A stretch of DNA of 64,000 nt from a virus (lineage: Duplodnaviria > Caudoviricetes): IMG/VR virus record IMGVR_UViG_3300042307_000844; one strand, 5' to 3'. The translations under genes and the position numbers were made by a program. Positions 658 through 64,000 of this stretch are shown one piece after another (positions within the stretch are counted from its first letter, which is position 1; every line of letters starts with the position of its first letter). The notes beneath the pieces were generated by a model that saw only the letters and a program-made list of their open reading frames with translations, did not search any database and had not been told where the DNA came from.

Positions 658-1716
658 ATGGCTGATATCTACATTTCAAAAATCAAAGTTCGTAGAGGAA
701 CAAACGCTGAGATCAATTCAACCCGTTTTGACCAAGGAGAACTTGTCCACGCAACAGATTCCAAACGTCTATTCATTGGTAACGGAGTGTTGAGTGGTGG
801 TAATCCGGTTTCCAGTAAAGTCCACCCCCCTCTCAACAATTATTATAGTCTTAGCACCACTTTGGCTGAAGTTGGTGATCTTGTATCTGTAAATTCAATC
901 TGGTATCAACTTACTGCATCTCCTTATAGTTCCGCCACGAATTGGGGAGATGTGAGAACAAAATTCTCTTCTGAATTTATATATGATTCGACTTCCACTG
1001 TTAATATGGCAGTAAGTGGACTATCGGCATCCAAAATTAACCCAAACACGGTTACAAATGGTGTCAATATCATTGATGGTAAAATTCAATTAAATTATAG
1101 AACAAATTTCTTTGAAATATCTTCCAATCAACTCTCCATAAAAACAGGAGGAATCACAACAAGGGAAATTCTTTCATCTTCTTTCAGTAATGGATTGAGT
1201 GGTGGTAATGGAAGACCAATTTCTTTGACTGTTTCCCCCACCGATTTCACATTCCAATCGGGAATACTTTCCGCCAATTACGCCAGAATTTCCGCCTATG
1301 GATTGAACACACAATCCCATTTGCCAGTATCCGCATATAACGCTCTCAGTGGAGTTACTGCTAAAGTTGGGAACACAGCATCAGTTGATAAAGTGATTTA
1401 TCAATTACAATCATTACCAGCCACCGCACTATCGAATTGGGAAGCCATTTCCAAAGATGCATTGACAATTTATGATACTCTGACTGGGAATTCCACGCAT
1501 CATTCCTTATCTGCTCTTTTTAATGGTAGTCCATCGCAACTCACGGATGGTGTGGTTCCCGGAATACAATTGACAAGTTTCACGGCATTGTCTTCCAACG
1601 GTCTTTCTTCCGTATCAATCACCTTATCTTCCGCTGGATTCATCACATTTGCGGGGGATACATCCGAAACCGGAAAAACGGTAAATAGATTCGCAATCCC
1701 AATCTTCACATACTAA
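658..1716 (+). CDS. Tail fibre/baseplate-associated protein with Mtd_N-like N-terminal domain
   Basis: N-terminus 'KIKVRRGT...GELVHATDSKRLFIGNG' matches the major-tropism-determinant N-terminal motif; the body is Ser/Thr/Gly-rich. Confidence 0.6.
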   Translation: MADIYISKIKVRRGTNAEINSTRFDQGELVHATDSKRLFIGNGVLSGGNPVSSKVHPPLNNYYSLSTTLAEVGDLVSVNSIWYQLTASPYSSATNWGDVRTKFSSEFIYDSTSTVNMAVSGLSASKINPNTVTNGVNIIDGKIQLNYRTNFFEISSNQLSIKTGGITTREILSSSFSNGLSGGNGRPISLTVSPTDFTFQSGILSANYARISAYGLNTQSHLPVSAYNALSGVTAKVGNTASVDKVIYQLQSLPATALSNWEAISKDALTIYDTLTGNSTHHSLSALFNGSPSQLTDGVVPGIQLTSFTALSSNGLSSVSITLSSAGFITFAGDTSETGKTVNRFAIPIFTY

Positions 1717-1717
1717 T

Positions 1718-2185
1718 ATGTCAATATCAATCACCAACGACACCCTTTTAAAGTTGCTTGCCCGCCAAGGAACCAATGCAGAACGTTTAAACGTTCTGTT
1801 AAATTCAGGAGAATTTGCATTCACCACCGATACTGAACGTCTTTTCATTGGCAATGGTGCGGATAACGGGGGTGTTTTGGTTGGCAATAAATTCAAGGGA
1901 TCAAATCCCGATGTCACCACCTTCTCTCCCGCAGAAATAGGAGATTTGGCATATAATAGTGATGCTCTCGTATTATATAGACTCAAACAAAATGATGGGT
2001 CAAACTTATCCGATTGGGAAAAAATCGGCGGTTCCGGGTTGACAAGTGATATCAACCAAGCTCTGGGAGGTGTTCAGATTGATAATCTGGTTCGGGTCAC
2101 TTCGGTTGGGTGGTCAACGCTGTCTGCTTCCAACGATCCAAACACTTTTTACATCGTTTCTGATGTGAATTATATAATCGTTTAA
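1718..2185 (+). CDS. Second Mtd_N-like tail protein
   Basis: 'RQGTNAER...GEFAFTTDTERLFIGNG' motif; C-terminal 'WSTLSASNDPNTFYIV' resembles the phage tail 'Y.AL..KD..TLY.I' motif. Confidence 0.6.
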   Translation: MSISITNDTLLKLLARQGTNAERLNVLLNSGEFAFTTDTERLFIGNGADNGGVLVGNKFKGSNPDVTTFSPAEIGDLAYNSDALVLYRLKQNDGSNLSDWEKIGGSGLTSDINQALGGVQIDNLVRVTSVGWSTLSASNDPNTFYIVSDVNYIIV

Positions 2186-2209
2186 TGTAACATATACTTT
2201 GACACTGTA

Positions 2210-2686
2210 ATGCCTACAAGCACCACCACTACTCTCTCAGGCACCACCACTCCAACGCCTACTACAAGCACCACGACTGCTCCATCAGACACCACGACTA
2301 CTACAAGCACCACGACTGCTCCATCAGACACCACGACTACTACAAGCACCACGACTGCTCCATCAGACACCACTACAGAACCCCCCATCACTACAGAACC
2401 CCCCACCACTACAGAACCCCCCACAACACCATCTTTAAGTTGTTGCGCTCCCCCTCCAAACCCACCAGTAATCAATCCCCCCATCATTCTGAACTTTACA
2501 ACACGAACCATTCCCCCGTTAGTGATTGATATAACACCCCCGACATCTCTCAATCCATTTACCATTCAAATAACTACGACCACCACAACAACGACTACGA
2601 CCACAACGACCACAACAACTGTTCCAAGAACTGGAACAGTTGTGCCTATTGAATGTGAAAGTTATTGTAAAAAGCTTGGGTTCTGA
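2210..2686 (+). CDS. Thr/Pro-rich mucin-like protein
   Basis: TSTTTAPSDTTTT and TTEPP repeats, a poly-Thr run, and Cys residues (SCCA, ECESYC). Confidence 0.6.
   Translation: MPTSTTTTLSGTTTPTPTTSTTTAPSDTTTTTSTTTAPSDTTTTTSTTTAPSDTTTEPPITTEPPTTTEPPTTPSLSCCAPPPNPPVINPPIILNFTTRTIPPLVIDITPPTSLNPFTIQITTTTTTTTTTTTTTTTVPRTGTVVPIECESYCKKLGF
2250..2425 (+). repeat. Coding tandem repeats: ~3 x 39 bp followed by 3 x 18 bp
   Basis: Unit tacaagcaccacgactgctccatcagacaccacgactac (39 bp, 13 aa) is repeated, then cactacagaacccccca(t/c) (18 bp). Confidence 0.9.
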
Positions 2687-2697
2687 TAATTATTAAC

Positions 2698-3534
2698 ATG
2701 CGAAAACTCACGATTGGTATTCCCACCTATAATGATTATGATGGATTATATTTCAGCATTCAAGCCATTAGAACATATCATCGGGAAGTTATAGATGATA
2801 TTGAATTTATTATTATTGATAATAATCCTGATTCTCCCCATGGGCAATCCAATAGGAATCTCACGAATTGGATCAAAGAACCTTTTCAATACCTCCCATT
2901 CACCAAATACAACGCATCCACCGTTAAAAATAAGGTGTTTTCCCTATCGGATACCCCTTATACCCTATGCATGGATAGCCATGTGATGATTGTCCCCGGT
3001 GCCTTGAAAAAGCTGATCCATTTATACGATTGTGGTGGAGATGGTGGAAATCTTTTACAAGGTCCTCTGCTTTATGATGATTTCCATCATTATTCCACCC
3101 ACTTTGATGACACTTGGAGTTCCCATATGTGGGGAACGTGGCAAACGGATGAGAGGGGCAAGGAAACGGATGCTCCCCCCTTTGAAATACCAGCCCAAGG
3201 CATGGGACTGTTCTCCTGTAGGACAGACTCATGGTTGGGATTCAACAAAGCTTTTAGGGGCTTTGGGGGGGAGGAGAAGTATATCCATGAGAAATACCGC
3301 CAACACGGTAAGAAGACGCTCTGCTTGCCCTTCCTGCGTTGGTTACACCGCTTTGAGCGTCCTGCTGGTATCCCATACAAGAATGATCTCAAGGATCGCT
3401 TTCGTAATTACATGATTGGGCATCACGAATTGGGGCAAGATACCAAAGTTCTCAAGGAACAGTTCAAAGGGGTCGTATCAGTGGAAGATATGAACAAGAT
3501 TGAAGTGGAAGCTACGATATTATCAAAATTATAA
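2698..3534 (+). CDS. Glycosyltransferase family 2
   Basis: 'LTIGIPTYND', 'IIIDN', DxH 'MDSH', and 'FRGFGGEE' GT-A motifs. Confidence 0.85.
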   Translation: MRKLTIGIPTYNDYDGLYFSIQAIRTYHREVIDDIEFIIIDNNPDSPHGQSNRNLTNWIKEPFQYLPFTKYNASTVKNKVFSLSDTPYTLCMDSHVMIVPGALKKLIHLYDCGGDGGNLLQGPLLYDDFHHYSTHFDDTWSSHMWGTWQTDERGKETDAPPFEIPAQGMGLFSCRTDSWLGFNKAFRGFGGEEKYIHEKYRQHGKKTLCLPFLRWLHRFERPAGIPYKNDLKDRFRNYMIGHHELGQDTKVLKEQFKGVVSVEDMNKIEVEATILSKL

Positions 3535-3714
3535 ACAATAGTTCTTCACATTACCCATCTCATCACGGTATCTTGCATATGAATATGTAGCTACACAAGA
3601 ATCTTCGTTTTCCTCCCATACTCCTAGAGTAGATTGCAATTCGTAAATTGCTTTAATATATTGTTCACAGGCAGATTTGGCAAGTGTAATATTTTCGTAG
3701 ATTATTTCTTCCAT
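3529..3714 (-). CDS. Hypothetical protein
   Basis: Small ORF in a tightly packed leftward run. Confidence 0.5.
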   Translation of the reverse strand: MEEIIYENITLAKSACEQYIKAIYELQSTLGVWEENEDSCVATYSYARYRDEMGNVKNYCL

Positions 3715-3717
3715 GTT

Positions 3718-3948
3718 TCAAATATTTCCCAATTGATGTTCAATTCTTGTGTCCCATAACATTGCAGGAAGTCTATCCTCAATATATTGGGTGATTGCCA
3801 ACGGTTTGATCATCTCCGCTGGATTGACTTCAAGTTCTTCCGCCCTCTGTTGAATGAAATGGAATGCTTCCACCAAGCAAGCCCATTTTGCAAATTCCTC
3901 GATGGTCATTTTGATCACCCCTCTTTTTTTAGTTTGTATTTTTATCAT
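3718..3948 (-). CDS. Hypothetical protein
   Basis: Packed leftward ORF; the start may be the internal MTIEEF. Confidence 0.6.
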   Translation of the reverse strand: MIKIQTKKRGVIKMTIEEFAKWACLVEAFHFIQQRAEELEVNPAEMIKPLAITQYIEDRLPAMLWDTRIEHQLGNI

Positions 3949-4474
3949 TTAGTTTTGTTTTAATTAATTTATCGATGTTTAAATCCTCAATCGGTTCCGT
4001 GATCAGAACAGTATCAAGCTTTAAAGTAACGGAATATGTGTTATTACAGGCATCACATTTCACTTCATATTCCTCCTCCGGTTTGAAAATACCCTCAAAC
4101 ATGTTTTGACCACAGTTGCAGGGGAATCTAACGGAAGCTTCTTCCAACATACTCTCGTAGTTTTTAATCACCTCTTCCTGTTCGACCATCACCCCATCCG
4201 CTTCCTGAAGCATCTTCTCCAATTGAATCACCCGCTCATCGGTCTGTTTCTTCTCAAGCTGGTTCTCCAATTCAATAACCCTATCATCCTTTTGCTTGCG
4301 ATTGTTCCACCAAAACATTCCCACCCCACATCCAATCATGGATAACACGAAATATCGTAGGAAATCCATCTCATTTGTGGTCAACCCAAAAGCCAACCCA
4401 AGGGAAATAGTAATTCCTCCCAATATTTGCAGTCCTATTTTTTCTATTTTTTCTGTCATAATTTTTATGTCCAC
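3929..4474 (-). CDS. Membrane protein with coiled coil and CxC/CxxC zinc-ribbon-like C-terminus
   Basis: Two hydrophobic segments, a heptad region, then 'CNCG...CDACN'. Confidence 0.65.
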   Translation of the reverse strand: MDIKIMTEKIEKIGLQILGGITISLGLAFGLTTNEMDFLRYFVLSMIGCGVGMFWWNNRKQKDDRVIELENQLEKKQTDERVIQLEKMLQEADGVMVEQEEVIKNYESMLEEASVRFPCNCGQNMFEGIFKPEEEYEVKCDACNNTYSVTLKLDTVLITEPIEDLNIDKLIKTKLNDKNTN

Positions 4475-4848
4475 ATGTAGCCCCGCTGTTGGATGATGAT
4501 CCGCATCACTTCCGAATCCTCATCATAAAGTTCTTTCTCAATCTTCTCATATTCTTTCCAATCCTCAATCGTGTCAAGAATTTTTACGATTTCAGATCGT
4601 CCCACCTTGATCCAATCATAACATTGTTTGAGCAAGCCTTCTCTGGCCTTGATCAGATCGACAGTCTCTTGCGTCACATGTCCTTTCTCAAGCTCTTCTT
4701 TGAATAGCTCATCAAGATTATCACGAAGACCTCGTTCTTCCTCCACATAATGAACCAGAGATTCAAATAAACAGATTTCCAGCAGTGCGTCCTTATCCAT
4801 CCAAGTTCCTTTGAGCTTGTTTGTTAGCCATCTTTGTTGATTTTTCAT
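4465..4848 (-). CDS. Hypothetical protein
   Basis: Packed ORF abutting its neighbours. Confidence 0.6.
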   Translation of the reverse strand: MKNQQRWLTNKLKGTWMDKDALLEICLFESLVHYVEEERGLRDNLDELFKEELEKGHVTQETVDLIKAREGLLKQCYDWIKVGRSEIVKILDTIEDWKEYEKIEKELYDEDSEVMRIIIQQRGYMWT

Positions 4849-14326: not shown

Positions 14327-14669
14327 ACCATTTATTGGTTTTAACGTCGAATGATTTCAACTTTCTCCGTATTCTCCAAGTCTTCATCGATTTGGATTCT
14401 TTTTTAGGTTTTGATAAAAATTCTTTCAAATCTTTCTGGAGAACGAACTTATCATAAAATTCATCCCACGTTTTCTTAGAAGCATTTTTCCTTGGTATTC
14501 TAGCGGTGGCGGAAATCATAACCTTCTCCCCAACACAGCCTTCTTCATGTGGTGTTCTCCAACCAAAACATTTACATGTTGGGCAATAATAATTGCGATG
14601 GGAATGTTGTGAACCGGAATCTCCTAAATTAAGTTTCATATCAATCCATAATTGCCACAAATGCTGCAT
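14319..14669 (-). CDS. Hypothetical protein with CxxC
   Basis: 'CPTCKC' in a packed ORF. Confidence 0.55.
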   Translation of the reverse strand: MQHLWQLWIDMKLNLGDSGSQHSHRNYYCPTCKCFGWRTPHEEGCVGEKVMISATARIPRKNASKKTWDEFYDKFVLQKDLKEFLSKPKKESKSMKTWRIRRKLKSFDVKTNKWYD

Positions 14670-14871
14670 GAATGGTTACAGCCCCATCGTCATCCCTACC
14701 TTGATAAGTCACTGCTCCAATATGTCGTAAAAAAACATCACGGGCTAAAAGTCTATTAATTTGATCCTCATAACTTTTCCCAAGTTGCCACGAATCAAAA
14801 TGAGGTAGAGATTCAATGTAATCATACACTTCTCTCACTCCTCCACTAATTAAATCGTATTTTTGTATCAT
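14641..14871 (-). CDS. Hypothetical protein
   Basis: Packed ORF. Confidence 0.5.
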   Translation of the reverse strand: MIQKYDLISGGVREVYDYIESLPHFDSWQLGKSYEDQINRLLARDVFLRHIGAVTYQGRDDDGAVTIHAAFVAIMD

Positions 14872-15167
14872 CGTCTGTTCTTCTCTTGATTCTCTCTGAT
14901 CTTCCTAGCTCTTTCCAATGCCCTCTCAGCAGCCCGTTCGTATTGTTCAGCAGTGGGGAATCCCGCGATCATACCAATACCCACATCTTCATATTCTGTT
15001 AATTCGCGGATGATTTTTCCATCAGACCTAACCATTCTCAGATGTGGTCGTGGTAAATCGTGTTTTCTCCCATCCATATAACCGTCACAATACGATTTGA
15101 TTTGATATTTGATGAAAGAGTTCCATTTGTTTAGACATGGACTTTGGATGCTATAGGTGTATTTCAT
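14868..15167 (-). CDS. Hypothetical protein
   Basis: ATGA-coupled ORF. Confidence 0.6.
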   Translation of the reverse strand: MKYTYSIQSPCLNKWNSFIKYQIKSYCDGYMDGRKHDLPRPHLRMVRSDGKIIRELTEYEDVGIGMIAGFPTAEQYERAAERALERARKIRENQEKNRR

Positions 15168-15598
15168 TGTTCCAAGAGTTCTGGATTTTCAAATATATTA
15201 CCACACACCACCCAATATGTCCAGTCGCATAAATTTACAAAATTATCATGCAGTGGAGATGGCGATCCATGTAAATTATTGACATTGTTATGGACGAAAC
15301 AACATTCTTTATCATTCCAACCAACCACAATTTTACAAAAAGACCCATTACCCACCCTCTCAAGGATATCCCCATCATAAATCTCTTTGTTGTTTTTGTC
15401 TATCAATCCAGTGAATTGTTGAAGAACGTAATCATCGGAACAATCAACATCTCCACAATGTTTAAAATCTCCACGCAACTTGCCGTTCAATTGTAAATAG
15501 AATTTTTCAGCATATTCTCCATTCATTATCGGAGTCGAAGATGGGTAAAACATCTCTTTATATAGAATATTCCAAATCCTGAATTTTATATCTCTCAT
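15164..15598 (-). CDS. YopX family protein
   Basis: 'MRDIKFRIW', 'QFTGLIDKNNKEIYDGDIL', and 'GNIFENPELL'. Confidence 0.9.
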   Translation of the reverse strand: MRDIKFRIWNILYKEMFYPSSTPIMNGEYAEKFYLQLNGKLRGDFKHCGDVDCSDDYVLQQFTGLIDKNNKEIYDGDILERVGNGSFCKIVVGWNDKECCFVHNNVNNLHGSPSPLHDNFVNLCDWTYWVVCGNIFENPELLEQ

Positions 15599-15882
15599 TT
15601 CTTTTTAACTTTTTTCTGCTCGGAACGAACATACTTGGTGACAAATTTACTCTTCGAAATTGTGCTGTCTTGATCCAAAAACACCTTAACAAGCTCCTGA
15701 TCAGAGTCAAGGGACAATATCGTTTTCAGGATCGTTTTCAGCTTCTCCTCTTGGAGAGTTGTCACGAAAACGTTCTGGATGGATAATTTCTTACCTTTGA
15801 TGTTATTTACGAAAGTGCAATAACAGAGAAATAAGTGGTTCTGTTCATTTTCTATTATATTTGAGGAGGGGTCGTATATCAT
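15595..15882 (-). CDS. Hypothetical protein; intact paralogue of the TnpB-disrupted gene
   Basis: Residues 4-30 match the remnant ORF at 17199-17324 at 18 of 27 positions. Confidence 0.8.
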   Translation of the reverse strand: MIYDPSSNIIENEQNHLFLCYCTFVNNIKGKKLSIQNVFVTTLQEEKLKTILKTILSLDSDQELVKVFLDQDSTISKSKFVTKYVRSEQKKVKKK

Positions 15883-15884
15883 AA

Positions 15885-15932
15885 TTAAATTGCGTGGGGT
15901 TGTTCGATAGATGAATCAAATAGGCGTTTCAT
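15885..15932 (-). CDS. 15-aa mini-ORF (MKRLFDSSIEQPHAI)
   Basis: ATG lies 6 nt after the -10 hexamer; the stop is 2 nt before the next ATG. Confidence 0.4.
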   Translation of the reverse strand: MKRLFDSSIEQPHAI

Positions 15933-15938
15933 ATATAT

Positions 15939-15966
15939 ACTATAATCTATTTTTCACCGAAGTCAA
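15939..15966 (-). promoter_or_regulatory. Sigma70-type early promoter TTGACT-N16-TATAGT
   Basis: Same architecture as the promoters at 22511, 27603 and 39018. Confidence 0.65.
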
Positions 15967-16005
15967 ATTAAATTACGATATTTCATAAAATATTAAGAAA
16001 AAGAC

Positions 16006-17239
16006 TAAATAATAACATAGAAGAGGAAATTACATACCAAGCTTTCAAATTCAGAATCTATCCGTTAGATTCTCAGAAGGAATTACTAGCAAAGCATTTT
16101 GGATGCTCTCGATTTATTTATAATTATTTTCTAAAAGAGAAACAAGATCATTATTTGAATAATGGCAAAACTTTAAATTATAATTATTGTTGTTCTGGTG
16201 TTAAAAAATTAAAAGACTCTGATGAATATTCATGGCTCAAAAAAGTCAATTCACAAACACTACAACAATCTTTAAAAAATCTTGAGACTGCGTATGGCAA
16301 TTTTTTCCGTAAGAAATCTAAATTTCCAAAATTTAAAAAGAAATCAAACCAACAATCATTTGGGGTTTGCCAAGGAGTTAAAATAAAAAATAATAATAAA
16401 TTACAAATTTATAAATTTAAAGAAGGAATACCGATTCATCTCCATCGTAAATTGGAAGGAAAAATCAAATCAGCAACAATTTCCAAAACGCCCACCGATA
16501 AATATTTTGCTTCCATCCTTTGTGAAGTCCCCAAGAAATCTAAACCAAAGACTGGTAAGACTTTGGGTATTGACTTGGGTATTACAGATTTCATAGTAAC
16601 AAGCGATGGGGAGAAAGTAAAAAATCCCAAATTCAATCATTCTTTAAAACAAAAGCTTTCAAAAGCTCAAAAACATTTAAGTAGGAAAACGAAAGGTAGC
16701 AATAGATACAAAAGACAAAGAAAAAAAGTAGCGAGAATCCACGAGAAGATAACCAATTCTCGGAAGGATTTCCAACACAAATTAAGCACTCGTTTGATTA
16801 ACGAGTATGATATGATTTCTTTAGAATCTCTGGCTGTTAAGAACATGATTAAGAATGTAAATCTTTCTTATAGTATTCAAGATAGCTCTTGGAGTTCTTT
16901 TATATCAATGTTGGAATATAAAGCCAAGTGGTATGGTAAGGAGATTAGGAAGATTGATAGATGGTATCCTAGTTCCAAGACCTGCCATAAGTGTGATTAT
17001 ATTATCGATAAGCTACCTTTGTCAGTGAGGCGTTGGATATGTCCCAAGTGTGGTGAGAACCATGACAGGGACATCAACGCCGCAAAAAACATTCATCGTC
17101 AGGGATTGGCGATTACAGATGTGGAGATGGAAGCTCTGGTTGCCAGCAATGGCGACGAAACTACTGTCTGTGAAGCGTCTAAAAAGAAGTCTTATAGACT
17201 AAGACTGAAGCCGCTGGGTCTTGCCCATCGGTAGTTCAC
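16006..17239 (+). mobile_element. Non-autonomous IS200/IS605 (IS1341-type) tnpB element
   Basis: tnpB plus a right-end subterminal hairpin CCG-C-TGGG-TCTTG-CCCA-T-CGG (17211-17231) and terminal GTAGTTCAC. No tnpA in the window; the left end is not recognisable. Confidence 0.85.
16017..17234 (+). CDS. tnpB: RNA-guided endonuclease TnpB
   Basis: The frame extends upstream of the called TTG (16155) through the HTH 'AFKFRIYPLDSQKELLAKHFGCSRFIYNYFL' to an ATA at 16017. RuvC D (GIDLG), E (LESL) and D (DRDINAA) are present, plus a CHKC/CPKC zinc finger. Confidence 0.92.
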   Translation: MEEEITYQAFKFRIYPLDSQKELLAKHFGCSRFIYNYFLKEKQDHYLNNGKTLNYNYCCSGVKKLKDSDEYSWLKKVNSQTLQQSLKNLETAYGNFFRKKSKFPKFKKKSNQQSFGVCQGVKIKNNNKLQIYKFKEGIPIHLHRKLEGKIKSATISKTPTDKYFASILCEVPKKSKPKTGKTLGIDLGITDFIVTSDGEKVKNPKFNHSLKQKLSKAQKHLSRKTKGSNRYKRQRKKVARIHEKITNSRKDFQHKLSTRLINEYDMISLESLAVKNMIKNVNLSYSIQDSSWSSFISMLEYKAKWYGKEIRKIDRWYPSSKTCHKCDYIIDKLPLSVRRWICPKCGENHDRDINAAKNIHRQGLAITDVEMEALVASNGDETTVCEASKKKSYRLRLKPLGLAHR

Positions 17240-17259
17240 CTTTGAGATGGTTCACGAAG
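17060..17259 (+). ncRNA. Predicted omega/reRNA scaffold plus guide (guide ~17240-17259, CTTTGAGATGGTTCACGAAG)
   Basis: Inferred from known TnpB biology: the scaffold overlaps the tnpB 3' end and the guide is read from the flank beyond TCAC. The 5' boundary is approximate. Confidence 0.6.
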
Positions 17260-17324
17260 GAACAATAACAAATGAATAAGTGATCGCTCTCGCTTTCTAT
17301 AATTGCAGATGAAGGATTGCTCAT
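17199..17324 (-). pseudogene. 5' remnant of the gene disrupted by the tnpB element
   Basis: MSNPSSAIIESESDHLFICYCSFVNHLKG, then element-derived ELPMGKTQRLQS*; ATGA-coupled to the upstream gene. Confidence 0.85.
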
Positions 17325-18010
17325 AATTCTATTGTTTCTATGTGAATATTGTTTTCAAAAAGCGGTTGGAAATGACTCCAATTTTTATGAAATTGATTTA
17401 GACCAGAATTGTCAAATAAACCCACTTGATATCTAATACCTTTCAATGGGAATGTGTCCCTATTGATATTTTGGAACTCAATTGGAGGAGATTTACCATC
17501 AAAACGAATATCGATATTTTCATCATATTGTCTCCGCACCATCTCACATAATTGTCGGTTGGAAGAAAAATGGATAACATTTTTACCGTTGAAAGCTTCC
17601 CAAGCAGCCAGCGTCAACAAGAAAATGGATACACCTTTTCGTCTGGTAAAGGTGAGATAATTATACCCTTCAATATAACCACGAAACATCGTTTTTTGAT
17701 CATAATTGATCGGATATCCATTAAAATTCTCAAAGAACTTATAGAATTCCCCCGTGGGATTAGGATTATTAGGCTTTGGTGTATAGAACTCCCCAAGATA
17801 TACCGATCCTTCATACGGATTATCATTATTCCATGCCAGAAACAGCATATGAGATATCCTTCGCACGTTATCCCAATCCTTTGGTTGTTTTTCCGCTGGA
17901 TAGAATTTCTCAGAGATTTTAGACACTTCGGAGACGAATCGCAATTCCTCCCCCATTACCTTATTGGGGTTGTGTTTCTCGTTGATGTGTTGTATTTCGT
18001 ATAATTTCAT
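17321..18010 (-). CDS. Hypothetical protein with degenerate P-loop-like C-terminal half
   Basis: 'TRRKGVSIFLL...GKNVIHFS'. Confidence 0.55.
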   Translation of the reverse strand: MKLYEIQHINEKHNPNKVMGEELRFVSEVSKISEKFYPAEKQPKDWDNVRRISHMLFLAWNNDNPYEGSVYLGEFYTPKPNNPNPTGEFYKFFENFNGYPINYDQKTMFRGYIEGYNYLTFTRRKGVSIFLLTLAAWEAFNGKNVIHFSSNRQLCEMVRRQYDENIDIRFDGKSPPIEFQNINRDTFPLKGIRYQVGLFDNSGLNQFHKNWSHFQPLFENNIHIETIEL

Positions 18011-18012
18011 TA

Positions 18013-18495
18013 TTATTCAGGATTTCCAAAGTTAATTTCTCGTTTCTCCCCACAAGCATCAAACCAATGATGATTTTTGGGTTTCAGATATTTATAGAAT
18101 GCTCCTTGAGGGCGCATCTTCCGCTTTCTAGCACAATACAGAAGACAACCATCGTCTCCCGCATCATTCAGAGATTGTTCCAACAGATTCCATTCATCAA
18201 GCTCCTCACAATCACCGCAAGCCCACCAGAAAAAGTCATTGCAATTGATGAAGCACTTCACTTCCCCATCTTTCAATGTGAGATAACGATAATCTTCCAC
18301 TTTCTCCAGTAGAGTTCTCTGATTATCTTCCAGAGAGTAGAACCATTTTTCAAATGCTATGGTATTGTCTATGATTTTTGACAGACAAGCGTTCCACCCC
18401 TCTTGCCATTCGGTTCTTTCGGTAATAATCCCATCCTTTGTGGTTGATTTGGGATATCCGCCGATGCTATCCAGTGCTGTTTCGTAAAAGTTCAT
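18013..18495 (-). CDS. Hypothetical protein
   Basis: Packed ORF. Confidence 0.6.
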   Translation of the reverse strand: MNFYETALDSIGGYPKSTTKDGIITERTEWQEGWNACLSKIIDNTIAFEKWFYSLEDNQRTLLEKVEDYRYLTLKDGEVKCFINCNDFFWWACGDCEELDEWNLLEQSLNDAGDDGCLLYCARKRKMRPQGAFYKYLKPKNHHWFDACGEKREINFGNPE

Positions 18496-19352
18496 ATTTC
18501 AGTTAAGGTTTCACTAAATTTCAAAAATTCCTTGGTGATTTTGCCTCCCGATGCCCATTCGCCCCCACCACCATCACAAAGAGTAGCAGCCATTTTAGCA
18601 ATGTCAACCTCCGACCCCTTGTATCTCCTAAAAGAAATGAATTGTGTATCCGCATTCATCACGATAACCACATCTCCATGATAAGAATCCATAATAGCAC
18701 CCGCTATTTCATTTACGGAGAACTTGGATATGGTCGAAATAACCTTGAATTCCTCCCATTCACCAAAATATAGAGTGATTTCTTCCAATTCCTTTTCCAA
18801 TTCTTTAAAAAATCCATCTGCCAATTTGACTTCTGATGCCGTGAACCCATCAAAACCGTTCCAGAACCTATTTACAAAATTAATGAAACGGTTTCCACCG
18901 GATTTCCTATACAATGCATTCAAATACTTGGTTTCTTCGTGTTTTAGATCATAAGAATTATAATCATCCACATAAAGGAAGAATTTCTTCAAATTCTTGG
19001 TAAATTCCACCTTTTCTTTGAATTTTTTATATAACATCTTGGTGCAAGATGAGCATTCTTCCTGAATCATGGTGGAATCCCACGTTTTGAAGTCTTCAGG
19101 ACGGTCTGAAACGAACACCACACGATGGTCATCAATCTTTTTGATAAGATTTTGATCTAGAACCATGCCGACGATGAAGATTTTATCATAGTCCTCTGCG
19201 TTTTCCTTAGCCCATGGTAGGTATTGCTCTTCAAATTTGCCGAAGAAGCAGTGACGATACTCAAAATTTTTGAAAATGTTCCCCAATAGAATTGTTGATC
19301 CAATTCCATCCAAATCAGAGTTGACCCAAGCAAAAACACGCGACATATTCAT
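18492..19352 (-). CDS. DHH/DHHA1-family phosphoesterase-like protein (degenerate motifs)
   Basis: 'NSDLDG', 'SDRP' at the DHH position, and 'GGGEWASG' in place of GGGH. The start is probably the second ATG (19346). Confidence 0.7.
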   Translation of the reverse strand: MNMSRVFAWVNSDLDGIGSTILLGNIFKNFEYRHCFFGKFEEQYLPWAKENAEDYDKIFIVGMVLDQNLIKKIDDHRVVFVSDRPEDFKTWDSTMIQEECSSCTKMLYKKFKEKVEFTKNLKKFFLYVDDYNSYDLKHEETKYLNALYRKSGGNRFINFVNRFWNGFDGFTASEVKLADGFFKELEKELEEITLYFGEWEEFKVISTISKFSVNEIAGAIMDSYHGDVVIVMNADTQFISFRRYKGSEVDIAKMAATLCDGGGGEWASGGKITKEFLKFSETLTEI

Positions 19353-19375
19353 AATTAATAATTTTTATGGGTTTG

Positions 19376-22538: not shown

Positions 22539-23255
22539 CTTTGTTCTCCCACCTCTAAGCATGTTACTAGGTTCGTAATCCTTGGATGTCATGGCGGCAG
22601 TCAAAGGATTATCACTATTCTCATCCCCTGTCCAGACCGGATCAACCCAAACATATTGACCATCATCTCGCATCATCACATTATCTCCATGCAAATCAGG
22701 ATTTAAATCAGGCAAATCCCTACGGAGCAGATACCATCCTTCCAGCAGATTATAAACAGCTTTTGGTAAAGATTTGACTTTTGAAGATAGCTTCATGAAT
22801 TGCGTTCTATCTTGTATTAATTTTGGATTTTCTTTCAAATGGAAATATAGCATCAAATTATTATCTATTAACCCCAACACATTAACAGGTGTTGGTTTAA
22901 GTCTTTCAATTCTCGCTAAATATTGCTTTGCTTCGTCCTTGTATCGTGTGAATTGCGGGACTACTCTTTGTGGTTTGCCGAAGAATTTGGGGAAGGATGG
23001 GTGAGGATTATCGTGAGCATATCTAGCGAATTTTAAGTAAGGATCATCCCAAGAGAAAACTTTTAGAACATACGGCCACTTGGGATGGGAATACACGATA
23101 CCAAACGAACCGGAACCGATGACCTCCCCCCCTGATGCCTCAAATTCTGCAATAAGTTCATCATAGTCCTTATCTGAATTTTCAGGATTTAACATGAATT
23201 CGGTGACAGTATCAAACGCTTCTTTGATTAGGTAAAACTCTGAAAAGGAAATCAT
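22524..23255 (-). CDS. Protein kinase-like (Ser/Thr kinase/APH fold) late protein
   Basis: Gly loop 'GSGSFGIVY', 'VLKV', catalytic 'DLHGDNVM', and 'VDP'; late TAAATA at 23261-23266. Confidence 0.8.
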   Translation of the reverse strand: MISFSEFYLIKEAFDTVTEFMLNPENSDKDYDELIAEFEASGGEVIGSGSFGIVYSHPKWPYVLKVFSWDDPYLKFARYAHDNPHPSFPKFFGKPQRVVPQFTRYKDEAKQYLARIERLKPTPVNVLGLIDNNLMLYFHLKENPKLIQDRTQFMKLSSKVKSLPKAVYNLLEGWYLLRRDLPDLNPDLHGDNVMMRDDGQYVWVDPVWTGDENSDNPLTAAMTSKDYEPSNMLRGGRTKLTSR

Positions 23256-23279
23256 GATATTATTTAGTTAAATATCAAT
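23256..23279. promoter_or_regulatory. Back-to-back late promoters
   Basis: TAAATA on minus (23261-66) and on plus (23269-74), each 5 nt from an ATG. Confidence 0.75.
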
Positions 23280-44144: not shown

Positions 44145-44174
44145 TAAATATAATAGAATTTAATAAATAATAAT

Positions 44175-44411
44175 ATGAGCGGGTTTTTTAAAGAAAAATA
44201 CGGAGGTTCTGCTGGGGCAATTTTGGATGCTTGGGGGCATGACCGAATCAATGCGGAGATTGGAAACATCTATGAGCAACATGTATTTGGTGCCAAGAGC
44301 ATCAACATGGACGAACTTCTAAATGAATTTCATGGACAAGCTACGGGCGGTGCTGTGAGGTATTCGGCTGATATTAAGACTGCTCCCAAAGGGGGCTTAC
44401 TGGAAGGATAA
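44175..44411 (+). CDS. Hypothetical protein
   Basis: Small ORF. Confidence 0.55.
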   Translation: MSGFFKEKYGGSAGAILDAWGHDRINAEIGNIYEQHVFGAKSINMDELLNEFHGQATGGAVRYSADIKTAPKGGLLEG

Positions 44412-63612: not shown

Positions 63613-63649
63613 TTTTCAAAAAATTCATACCCGATCTCTAAATAATAAT

Positions 63650-64000
63650 ATGAAGAAAAAAAGCACGAACCTTTTCTCGGAAGACATCCAAAAAAGTCTG
63701 GGACTCAGCGATGAATCCATCAAGGCAATTCAGGAATCCCTTGAATCCAAGATTGATCTGGCCGTTGAAGCTGCCCTTTTGGAACAGGATGAAGTATATG
63801 CCTCCAAACTCAAGACCCTGATGACATCCGTTGATAAGGATCGCACGGTCAAGATGAAAAAGATCATGGAAGCTTTTGATAGAGATAAGACCGCAAAGCT
63901 GGTCAAGGTTATCAAAAAGTATGAGCGCGAACAGAACGGCGATCTTCTCAAGTTCAAAAAACAACTTACGGAATCCGTTAGTGCTTTCCTTGACGAGTTC
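63650..64000 (+). CDS. gp22: Prohead scaffold protein (T4 gp22-like), 3'-truncated
   Basis: Not in the ORF track (no stop within the window). MKKKSTNLFSEDIQKSLGLSDESIKAIQESLESKI...; late TAAATA (63639-44); coiled coil downstream of gp21. Confidence 0.75.
   Translation, partial: MKKKSTNLFSEDIQKSLGLSDESIKAIQESLESKIDLAVEAALLEQDEVYASKLKTLMTSVDKDRTVKMKKIMEAFDRDKTAKLVKVIKKYEREQNGDLLKFKKQLTESVSAFLDEF

Follow-up and report, generated by a model that had tools for sequence, protein, structure and literature searches.

This report concerns a tnpB gene lodged in a small conserved gene of a phage (Duplodnaviria; Caudoviricetes). The locus lies in a stretch of 64,000 nucleotides (hereafter the window, to which all coordinates refer) that is part of a 177,639-bp IMG/VR virus record, IMGVR_UViG_3300042307_000844. 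In this stretch, tnpB (plus strand) separates an intact copy of a gene that we designate X (15595-15882, minus strand) from an 85-nt remnant corresponding to the 5' end of the same gene (17240-17324, minus strand). An earlier note, made from the sequence alone, had described these features, all of which were found where it had placed them. It proposed that the locus cleaves, by means of an RNA guide, the X allele of co-infecting relatives and spreads along with a resistant replacement allele.

Integrity of the locus

The arrangement is not confined to a single record. All sampled words of the segment 15500-17400 are present in 24 lake-water runs (24 studies); the phage comes from lake water. 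In four runs, both junctions are crossed by single contigs with zero differences, and contigs of 8-17 kb span the two. The same arrangement is found in L002, L104, L105 and L216-L218 (L numbers designate related contigs or loci throughout), which stem from several independent samples and assemblers; L104, L105, L216 and L218 are independent assemblies, identical over 8-13 kb. The exact TnpB protein is indexed in 60 collection blocks and the exact X protein in 117, the two being neighbours in every contig read. The 24 runs and the contigs across both junctions show that no assembly artefact is involved, which disposes of the concern, raised at the outset, that two strains might have been joined.

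The tnpB gene

The open frame of tnpB extends over 16008-17234. If the ATA at 16017 is the start codon, the gene (16017-17234, plus strand) encodes a protein of approximately 405 amino acids (aa), with Pfam matches to OrfB_IS605 (E = 1.7e-33), the Cas12f1-like TNB domain (2.3e-26) and HTH_OrfB_IS605 (7.8e-16). A phmmer comparison with the ISDra2 TnpB structures gave an E-value of 3.4e-88, the GIDLG, SLESL and HDRD motifs aligning with the D, E and D residues of the split RuvC site. The RuvC residues are thus intact, as first described, and the protein has the full set of TnpB family domains; it looks like an intact, ISDra2-like, and so presumably active, nuclease.

No ATG, GTG or TTG codon lies ahead of the HTH domain in the tnpB frame. 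At the equivalent position, all close TnpB relatives (L047, L049-L052) show an ATA codon, and none an ATG, four codons ahead of the conserved (I/L)T(Y/F)Q N-terminus; ATA could be a conserved non-canonical start codon that keeps TnpB levels low. The same ATA ends a late-promoter-like sequence, TAAATA-N5-ATA (16006-16019, plus strand). The version with ATG occurs 18 times in the window as compared to 1.75 expected (e.g. 23253-23266, 44164-44177 and 63639-63652) and is probably the late promoter of the phage. A late promoter so near the start codon would render late mRNAs nearly leaderless. The TAAATA motif with ATA is kept in all seven close TnpB relatives. Relatives at 70-80% identity are found in phage contigs only, the best match in a bacterial genome being at 50%, and the lineage reads as phage-resident.

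The 177.6-kb record holds a single tnpB. A search of the whole record for Y1 tnpA (PF01797) yielded no match, whereas positive controls worked; the absence of tnpA noted in the window is thereby extended to the entire record.

The candidate omegaRNA and its guide

The element ends with TTCAC (17235-17239). The same terminus recurs in seven related elements, so the right end originally assigned (TCAC, 17236-17239) is correct. The putative omegaRNA scaffold (17102-17239, plus strand) overlaps the 3' end of tnpB and finishes at this terminus. Folding the last ~200 nt of eight elements with RNAalifold produced 32 pairs, 15 of which show compensatory changes on both sides; one consensus helix pairs a GGRAY box with the bases just before the terminal AC. 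Conservation of TTCAC and covariation of 15 of the 32 pairs argue that the scaffold is under selection. In Rfam, no family matched the omegaRNA region at E-values up to 1.

The predicted guide, placed by the conserved right end, corresponds to the first 16-20 nt of the right flank (17240-17259, plus strand), that is, to sequence of the remnant, which is preceded by TCAC and not by TTAC. The resident X carries TTAC (15791-15794) followed by a related site (together 15791-15814, plus strand) that differs from the guide at 6 of 20 positions, namely 7, 8, 10, 11, 14 and 20, exactly as the earlier note had it. There is no other near match to the guide in the record. Because four of the mismatches fall in positions 1-12, where double mismatches abolish cutting by ISDra2 TnpB (PMC10097598), the resident copy should be protected from its own guide.

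Alleles of X in related phages

X (95 aa) is a single-copy gene, syntenic in 39 related IMG/VR loci, where the order is DHH, variable genes, X, variable genes, a 209-aa gene and gp32. Among these loci, only L002 contains tnpB. The remnant (29 codons) is identical to L030 in 81 of 85 nt and in the whole encoded peptide. Together with 12 residues contributed by the right end, its 29 residues form a 41-aa open reading frame (ORF; 17199-17324), and its ATG overlaps the stop codon of the upstream 229-aa gene as ATGA, in agreement with the coupling first reported. Between the remnant and the resident X, BLASTP aligns 18 of 28 identical residues (E = 4e-15; 54 of 85 nt at the DNA level), which upholds the description of the latter as an intact paralogue. 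The second 3' half that would belong to the disrupted copy is missing not only from the window, as noticed initially, but from the whole record.

Had X once been uninterrupted, related phages might still hold an allele in which the guide sequence follows the transposon-adjacent motif (TAM). Such alleles, predicted in the earlier note, were found in four contigs: L030-L033 have an uninterrupted X whose encoded N-terminus is identical to that of the remnant, and with TTAC followed by a match to the guide in 19 of 20 positions (1-19). L034/35 and L003 have TTAC and one mismatch, at position 7 or 2. In 12 alleles the motif is TTTC and in others it is TTGC or TTCC; the third TAM base coincides with the wobble position of a glycine codon. 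Five to eight guide mismatches are present in many alleles. Since L030-L033 match the guide and others vary in TAM or target, it appears from the alleles themselves that susceptible and presumably resistant forms of X coexist in nature. Two relatives, L219 and L220, represent the empty site: p160 and the p229 homologue are followed by an intact X with a 19/20 guide match. A metagenome scan with an 18-nt junction-neutral pattern returned chance matches and one naive allele that was already known.

Composition of the resident X gene

The resident X is intact and chimeric. Across 13 alleles compared, identity ranges from 59 to 74% for its first 88 nt (15795-15882) and from 64 to 83% for the remaining 200 nt (15595-15794), the closest alleles reaching 77-83% in the latter. 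The contrast between the two parts holds against each of the four closest relatives, L219, L023, L003 and L030 (Fisher p between 0.0002 and 0.009). The identity gap amounts to 12.6 points; among TnpB-less alleles, compared in 45 control pairs, it is 0.3 +/- 6.9, showing no intrinsic difference in rate between the 5' and 3' segments. Identity to L219 amounts to 82% for the remnant and 83% for the resident 3' part, the values for L023 being 84% and 82%; the remnant is 95% identical to L030. Thus, the inserted gene end is an outlier and the displaced native end groups with the relatives. Because the remnant and the resident 3' part behave as one normal allele, the simplest reading is that together they made up the native gene, and that 15795-15882 arrived with the insert.

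These data modify the notion of a replacement allele: it stands for the foreign gene end (first 88 nt) but not for the gene as a whole, whose 3' part is native-like. Nor is "recoded" an accurate term for the resident copy, since the TnpB-less allele L025 has exactly the same 30 nt in the target region; moreover, 10 of 28 residues differ from the remnant.

The left side of the insert

No recognisable IS200/IS605 left end was found on the left side, where an outward-facing promoter and the phage late promoter lie instead. The former is a sigma-70-like sequence, TTGACT-16-TATAGT (15939-15966, minus strand), matching in 10 of 12 positions. A 15-aa mini-ORF (15885-15932, minus strand) has its ATG 6 nt past the -10 box and ends 2 nt before the start of X; its mRNA is probably leaderless. 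TnpB copy 2 of L047 shares this promoter together with 7 nt at the beginning of the mini-ORF, and another gene follows in L047/L048. Since the promoter stands there before a different gene, it belongs to the cassette. The earlier claim that the paralogue has its own promoter is made plausible by this sequence and in that measure supported. The promoter would restore early transcription of X and of downstream genes, which would otherwise be cut off by the oppositely oriented insert.

Likeness to the relatives on this side begins ~20-70 nt before the start codon and includes promoters, with no shared hairpin. Neither a tnpA gene in the record nor a left-end hairpin was thus found that would mark an autonomous transposon; tnpA was seen only in contig L047.

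Related elements at other genes

A diverged duplication anchored at the right end also occurs at two other target genes. In L050, the 38 nt past the right end are repeated directly before the left part of the cassette, with five differences that leave the peptide unchanged. The upstream copy completes a 70-aa gene and the downstream copy starts the next, overlapping gene; no naive relatives of this target were found. In L051, TTAC followed by TTGTTTCAT upstream corresponds to TTCAC followed by TTGTTTCAT downstream. Here the repeat comprises the start codon and the upstream motif of a 79-aa gene, and naive relatives (L131-133) have the motif once. Overall, the motif ahead of the site that corresponds to the guide is TTAC in L030-L035, L051 and the resident X, but TTGA at the resident copy of L050 and TTTC in L219/L220.

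No such duplication is seen at four further close copies of TnpB (copies 1 and 2 of L047, L049 and L052), indicating that a repair module of this kind is not universal. In L047, two TnpB copies lie head to head (784-4210 of that contig), and a 131-aa Y1 TnpA gene (2079-2474) sits beside copy 1, which is apparently an autonomous IS605-type element inside a phage.

Occurrence at three independent loci (the window, L050 and L051) suggests a general design rather than an accident. We tentatively entertain, at somewhat less than even chances, the existence, in lytic freshwater phages, of a lineage of TnpB-omegaRNA cassettes that have abandoned transposition, each being locked to one gene and carrying a built-in repair module, and that act as a gene drive between co-infecting phages, in an RNA-guided parallel to the mobile endonuclease ORFs of mitochondria. 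As part of the same tentative reading, the module would consist of a diverged displaced gene end, with promoters where needed, making a coding insertion harmless and rendering the carrier immune to the guide that it encodes.

In L065, ~95-nt direct repeats that are ~80% identical (2857-2951 and 4427-4522 of that contig) flank a more distant phage TnpB. The downstream repeat starts ~200 nt beyond the likely right end. As these repeats are not anchored at the right end, L065 was set apart as a different phenomenon.

Signs of exchange between strains

L002, from another sample, is 100% identical to the window over 14646-18607 and then 8.5% divergent, the break falling at 18608 in the DHH gene. 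This block is possibly a recent transfer, and its pattern is the one that co-conversion would produce. A search for the cassette in diverse backgrounds recovered near-clonal copies only, L002 excepted, so that the evidence for spread is limited to this one contig.

A second candidate trace is found in L025, which has an L030-like X allele. Eight differences cluster at target positions 7-23, where L025 (299-332 of that contig) has the sequence of the resident phage, and they span the cut positions known for ISDra2. The patch is suggestive of a repair footprint from an immune copy, or else of ordinary mosaicism. Its interpretation as a clean conversion tract was discarded, since the 5% divergence between L025 and L032 is spread over many other clusters.

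In L217, nine single-nucleotide polymorphisms at 19176-19254 are the same variants as in L002, and the patches of the DHH gene (18608-19354) differ. That strains identical across the cassette differ in DHH patches shows frequent short-patch exchange in the population.

Discussion

Taken as a whole, the locus is somewhat better explained than not, in our judgement, by the 1,445-bp segment 15795-17239 being a target-specific homing cassette, driven by TnpB independently of TnpA and inserted exactly 3' of TTAC in X. The sequences themselves show the anatomy of the locus, its conservation, the chimerism of X, the existence of matching alleles and the recurrence of the architecture; the scheme that we infer for cleavage, the TAM, homing and the origin of the cassette is drawn by analogy with ISDra2 TnpB, the free-standing homing endonucleases of T4 and mitochondrial mobile endonuclease ORFs. 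The cassette would combine tnpB, under a late promoter, and an omegaRNA guided by the adjoining displaced 5' end of X, with a repair module made of the outward early-type promoter, the short leader ORF and the foreign 88 nt of X mismatched to the guide. The module joins in frame to the native 3' part, and X would stay functional. TnpB would be made late and, in a mixed infection, the TnpB-omegaRNA complex would cut any relative's X having TTAC and 12-16 matching nucleotides, presumably at 15-21 bp from the TAM as does ISDra2 TnpB (PMC8612924). The phage recombination machinery would then mend the break with the cassette-bearing genome as template, X and the downstream genes serving as one homology arm and the 85-nt remnant and upstream genes as the other. 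The cassette and flanking markers would be copied in, or else the rival genome would be lost. The resident copy would escape through its seed mismatches, and its divergence from the remnant (63.5% identity) would limit deletion by repeat recombination. As to the origin, a canonical insertion at TTAC may have been followed by a homologous crossover with a divergent phage in the conserved body of X and, lastly, by an illegitimate join in the interval 15896-15925.

Several observations weigh against this homing scheme. The ATA start of tnpB is not canonical, and protein levels may be very low. We infer TTAC as the TAM from two loci only; the resident copy in L050 is preceded by TTGA, and the closest empty-site relatives, L219 and L220, have TTTC. 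As every allele is conserved over the ~100 nt next to the TAM, the left breakpoint cannot be pinned to the TAM itself. The cassette-bearing contigs are nearly clonal, L002 alone having a diverged flank, and both L002 and the L025 patch could result from ordinary recombination, since mosaic patches are common in these phages. There is no RNA run among those holding the locus. Lastly, Pfam and PHROGs gave no indication of the function of X.

Near-clonality, the ATA codon and the commonness of mosaicism would suit a passive history, in which an IS605-type element was inserted at TTAC by TnpA acting in trans, the phage was rescued by a divergent co-infecting phage, and TnpB has since hitch-hiked. 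The insertion has the exact IS200/IS605 geometry (TTAC directly before the element, TTCAC at its end), and a related phage contig harbours an autonomous relative with its Y1 tnpA (L047:2079-2474). Yet the TnpB reading frame, the catalytic residues and the omegaRNA structure have been kept, with compensatory changes, among phage copies 70-80% identical, and the cassette includes phage-specific promoters. Besides, the repair-module architecture arose at three different genes, and one would expect a neutral 1.4-kb insert to be lost from a compact lytic genome. We regard this passive history as unlikely.

Less likely still is that TnpB serves purely in competition, killing the matching genomes of co-infecting relatives without copying the cassette into them. 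The target evidence (TTAC and 19/20 alleles) is the same for both functions. Since susceptible relatives have DHH directly upstream of X and lack p160 and p229, the homology with them on this side amounts to only 85 nt, and competitor killing has been noted for cases where homology is too low for conversion (PMC13565253). Nevertheless, the 85-nt remnant and the conserved body of X are usable homology arms, L002 has the cassette block within a diverged flank, and killing and homing are compatible with each other. Finally, a false joining of two strains with different X alleles, which diverged copies of one gene segment 1.4 kb apart in a metagenome assembly might evoke, has a negligible probability in view of the identical arrangement in independent samples and assemblers, the 24 runs and the contigs spanning both junctions.

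Returning to homing, the features of the locus can be set against three known systems. TnpB of the ISDra2 type (Karvelis 2021, PMC8612924; structures 8EXA, 8BF8 and 8H1J) belongs to the same family, with the RuvC D/E/D residues. It likewise has a scaffold overlapping the tnpB 3' end, a guide from the right flank and insertion exactly 3' of a 4-nt motif, which the insertion separates from the target; the motif of IS608 is TTAC, as here. The present locus differs by the lack of tnpA and of a recognisable left-end hairpin, by residing in a lytic T4-like phage with a late promoter and an ATA start, and by a left side made up of a replacement gene end and an outward promoter. Its presumed target, moreover, is the allele of a co-infecting relative and not a sister chromatid after excision. 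TnpB is known to restore the transposon after excision and to drive the spread of insertion sequences in plasmids; TnpB-driven transposon homing (bioRxiv 10.1101/2023.03.14.532601) and a plasmid gene drive (PMC11870625) have been described.

The closest analogue is the mobile endonuclease ORF (mORF) of fungal mitochondria with its duplicated gene end. Fungal mORFs carry a foreign C-terminal segment and leave the native C*-terminus as a remnant (PMC3630166; atp6 in Allomyces; atp6, atp9, cox2 and nad3 in Glomus). There, as here, the endonuclease gene lies between an inserted divergent gene end that is in use and the native end, now displaced. In both cases it is the native remnant that groups with relatives, the inserted copy standing apart from them, and the hybrid is functional. 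The fungal enzymes are, however, of the LAGLIDADG or GIY-YIG type rather than RNA-guided, and they replace the 3' end of the gene, whereas in this phage the 5' end is replaced, so a promoter must be carried too.

Free-standing homing endonucleases of T-even phages (SegF, SegB and Mob), responsible for intronless homing and localized marker exclusion (PMC13565253), also lie beside their target gene in a T4-like phage. They tell self from non-self by polymorphisms in a conserved gene and co-convert flanking markers, as would be expected in the present case. What sets the X locus apart is a guide RNA copied from the target, and an insertion inside the gene that is offset by the duplicated gene end. 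A 2026 review treats "non-restorative transposon homing" in phages, to which the behaviour proposed here would correspond, as theoretical and proposes phage-phage homing as a possibility only (PMC13565253). In our literature search, no published TnpB cassette equipped with a gene-repair module came up. In its protein and RNA, the unit is an IS200/IS605 TnpB-omegaRNA pair.

All pieces of the proposed system can be defined: the guide, the susceptible, resistant and possibly converted alleles, the phage-adapted signals and the repair module. The latter would explain how the gene of an RNA-guided nuclease can persist within a conserved gene of a lytic phage whose genome is compact. Polymorphism in matching the guide may contribute to the allele diversity of a core gene in lake phages, and RNA-guided homing in phages becomes testable with a few synthetic targets. 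The locus also links three separate literatures, on OMEGA nucleases, intronless homing in T4 and mitochondrial mobile endonuclease ORFs.

Additional features of the locus

The surroundings of X form a T4-like replication module, with genes for a gp32-like single-stranded DNA-binding protein, a DnaB-type helicase, a DHH protein and YopX. The gp32 protein is at most 32% identical to cyanophage gp32, implying only distant kinship to isolates, and a DNA search of GenBank phages gave zero matches.

A profile search of X against the PDB returned chance matches only and the Atlas no usable match; an all-helical AlphaFold2 model (pLDDT 81) had no Foldseek match in the PDB or BFVD. The idea of a gp33-like factor, a guess from the position near gp32, found no support.

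The YopX-family gene (15164-15598, minus strand) directly downstream of X is missing there in most relatives, in which the next gene after X is that of 99 aa or that of 209 aa. The cassette thus has a further variable insert beside it. A terminator-like hairpin with a T-run (17443-17466, plus strand) lies ~200 nt past the right end, antisense to the 229-aa gene. It may end the tnpB/omegaRNA transcript or be due to chance, two such structures being seen against 1.2 expected.

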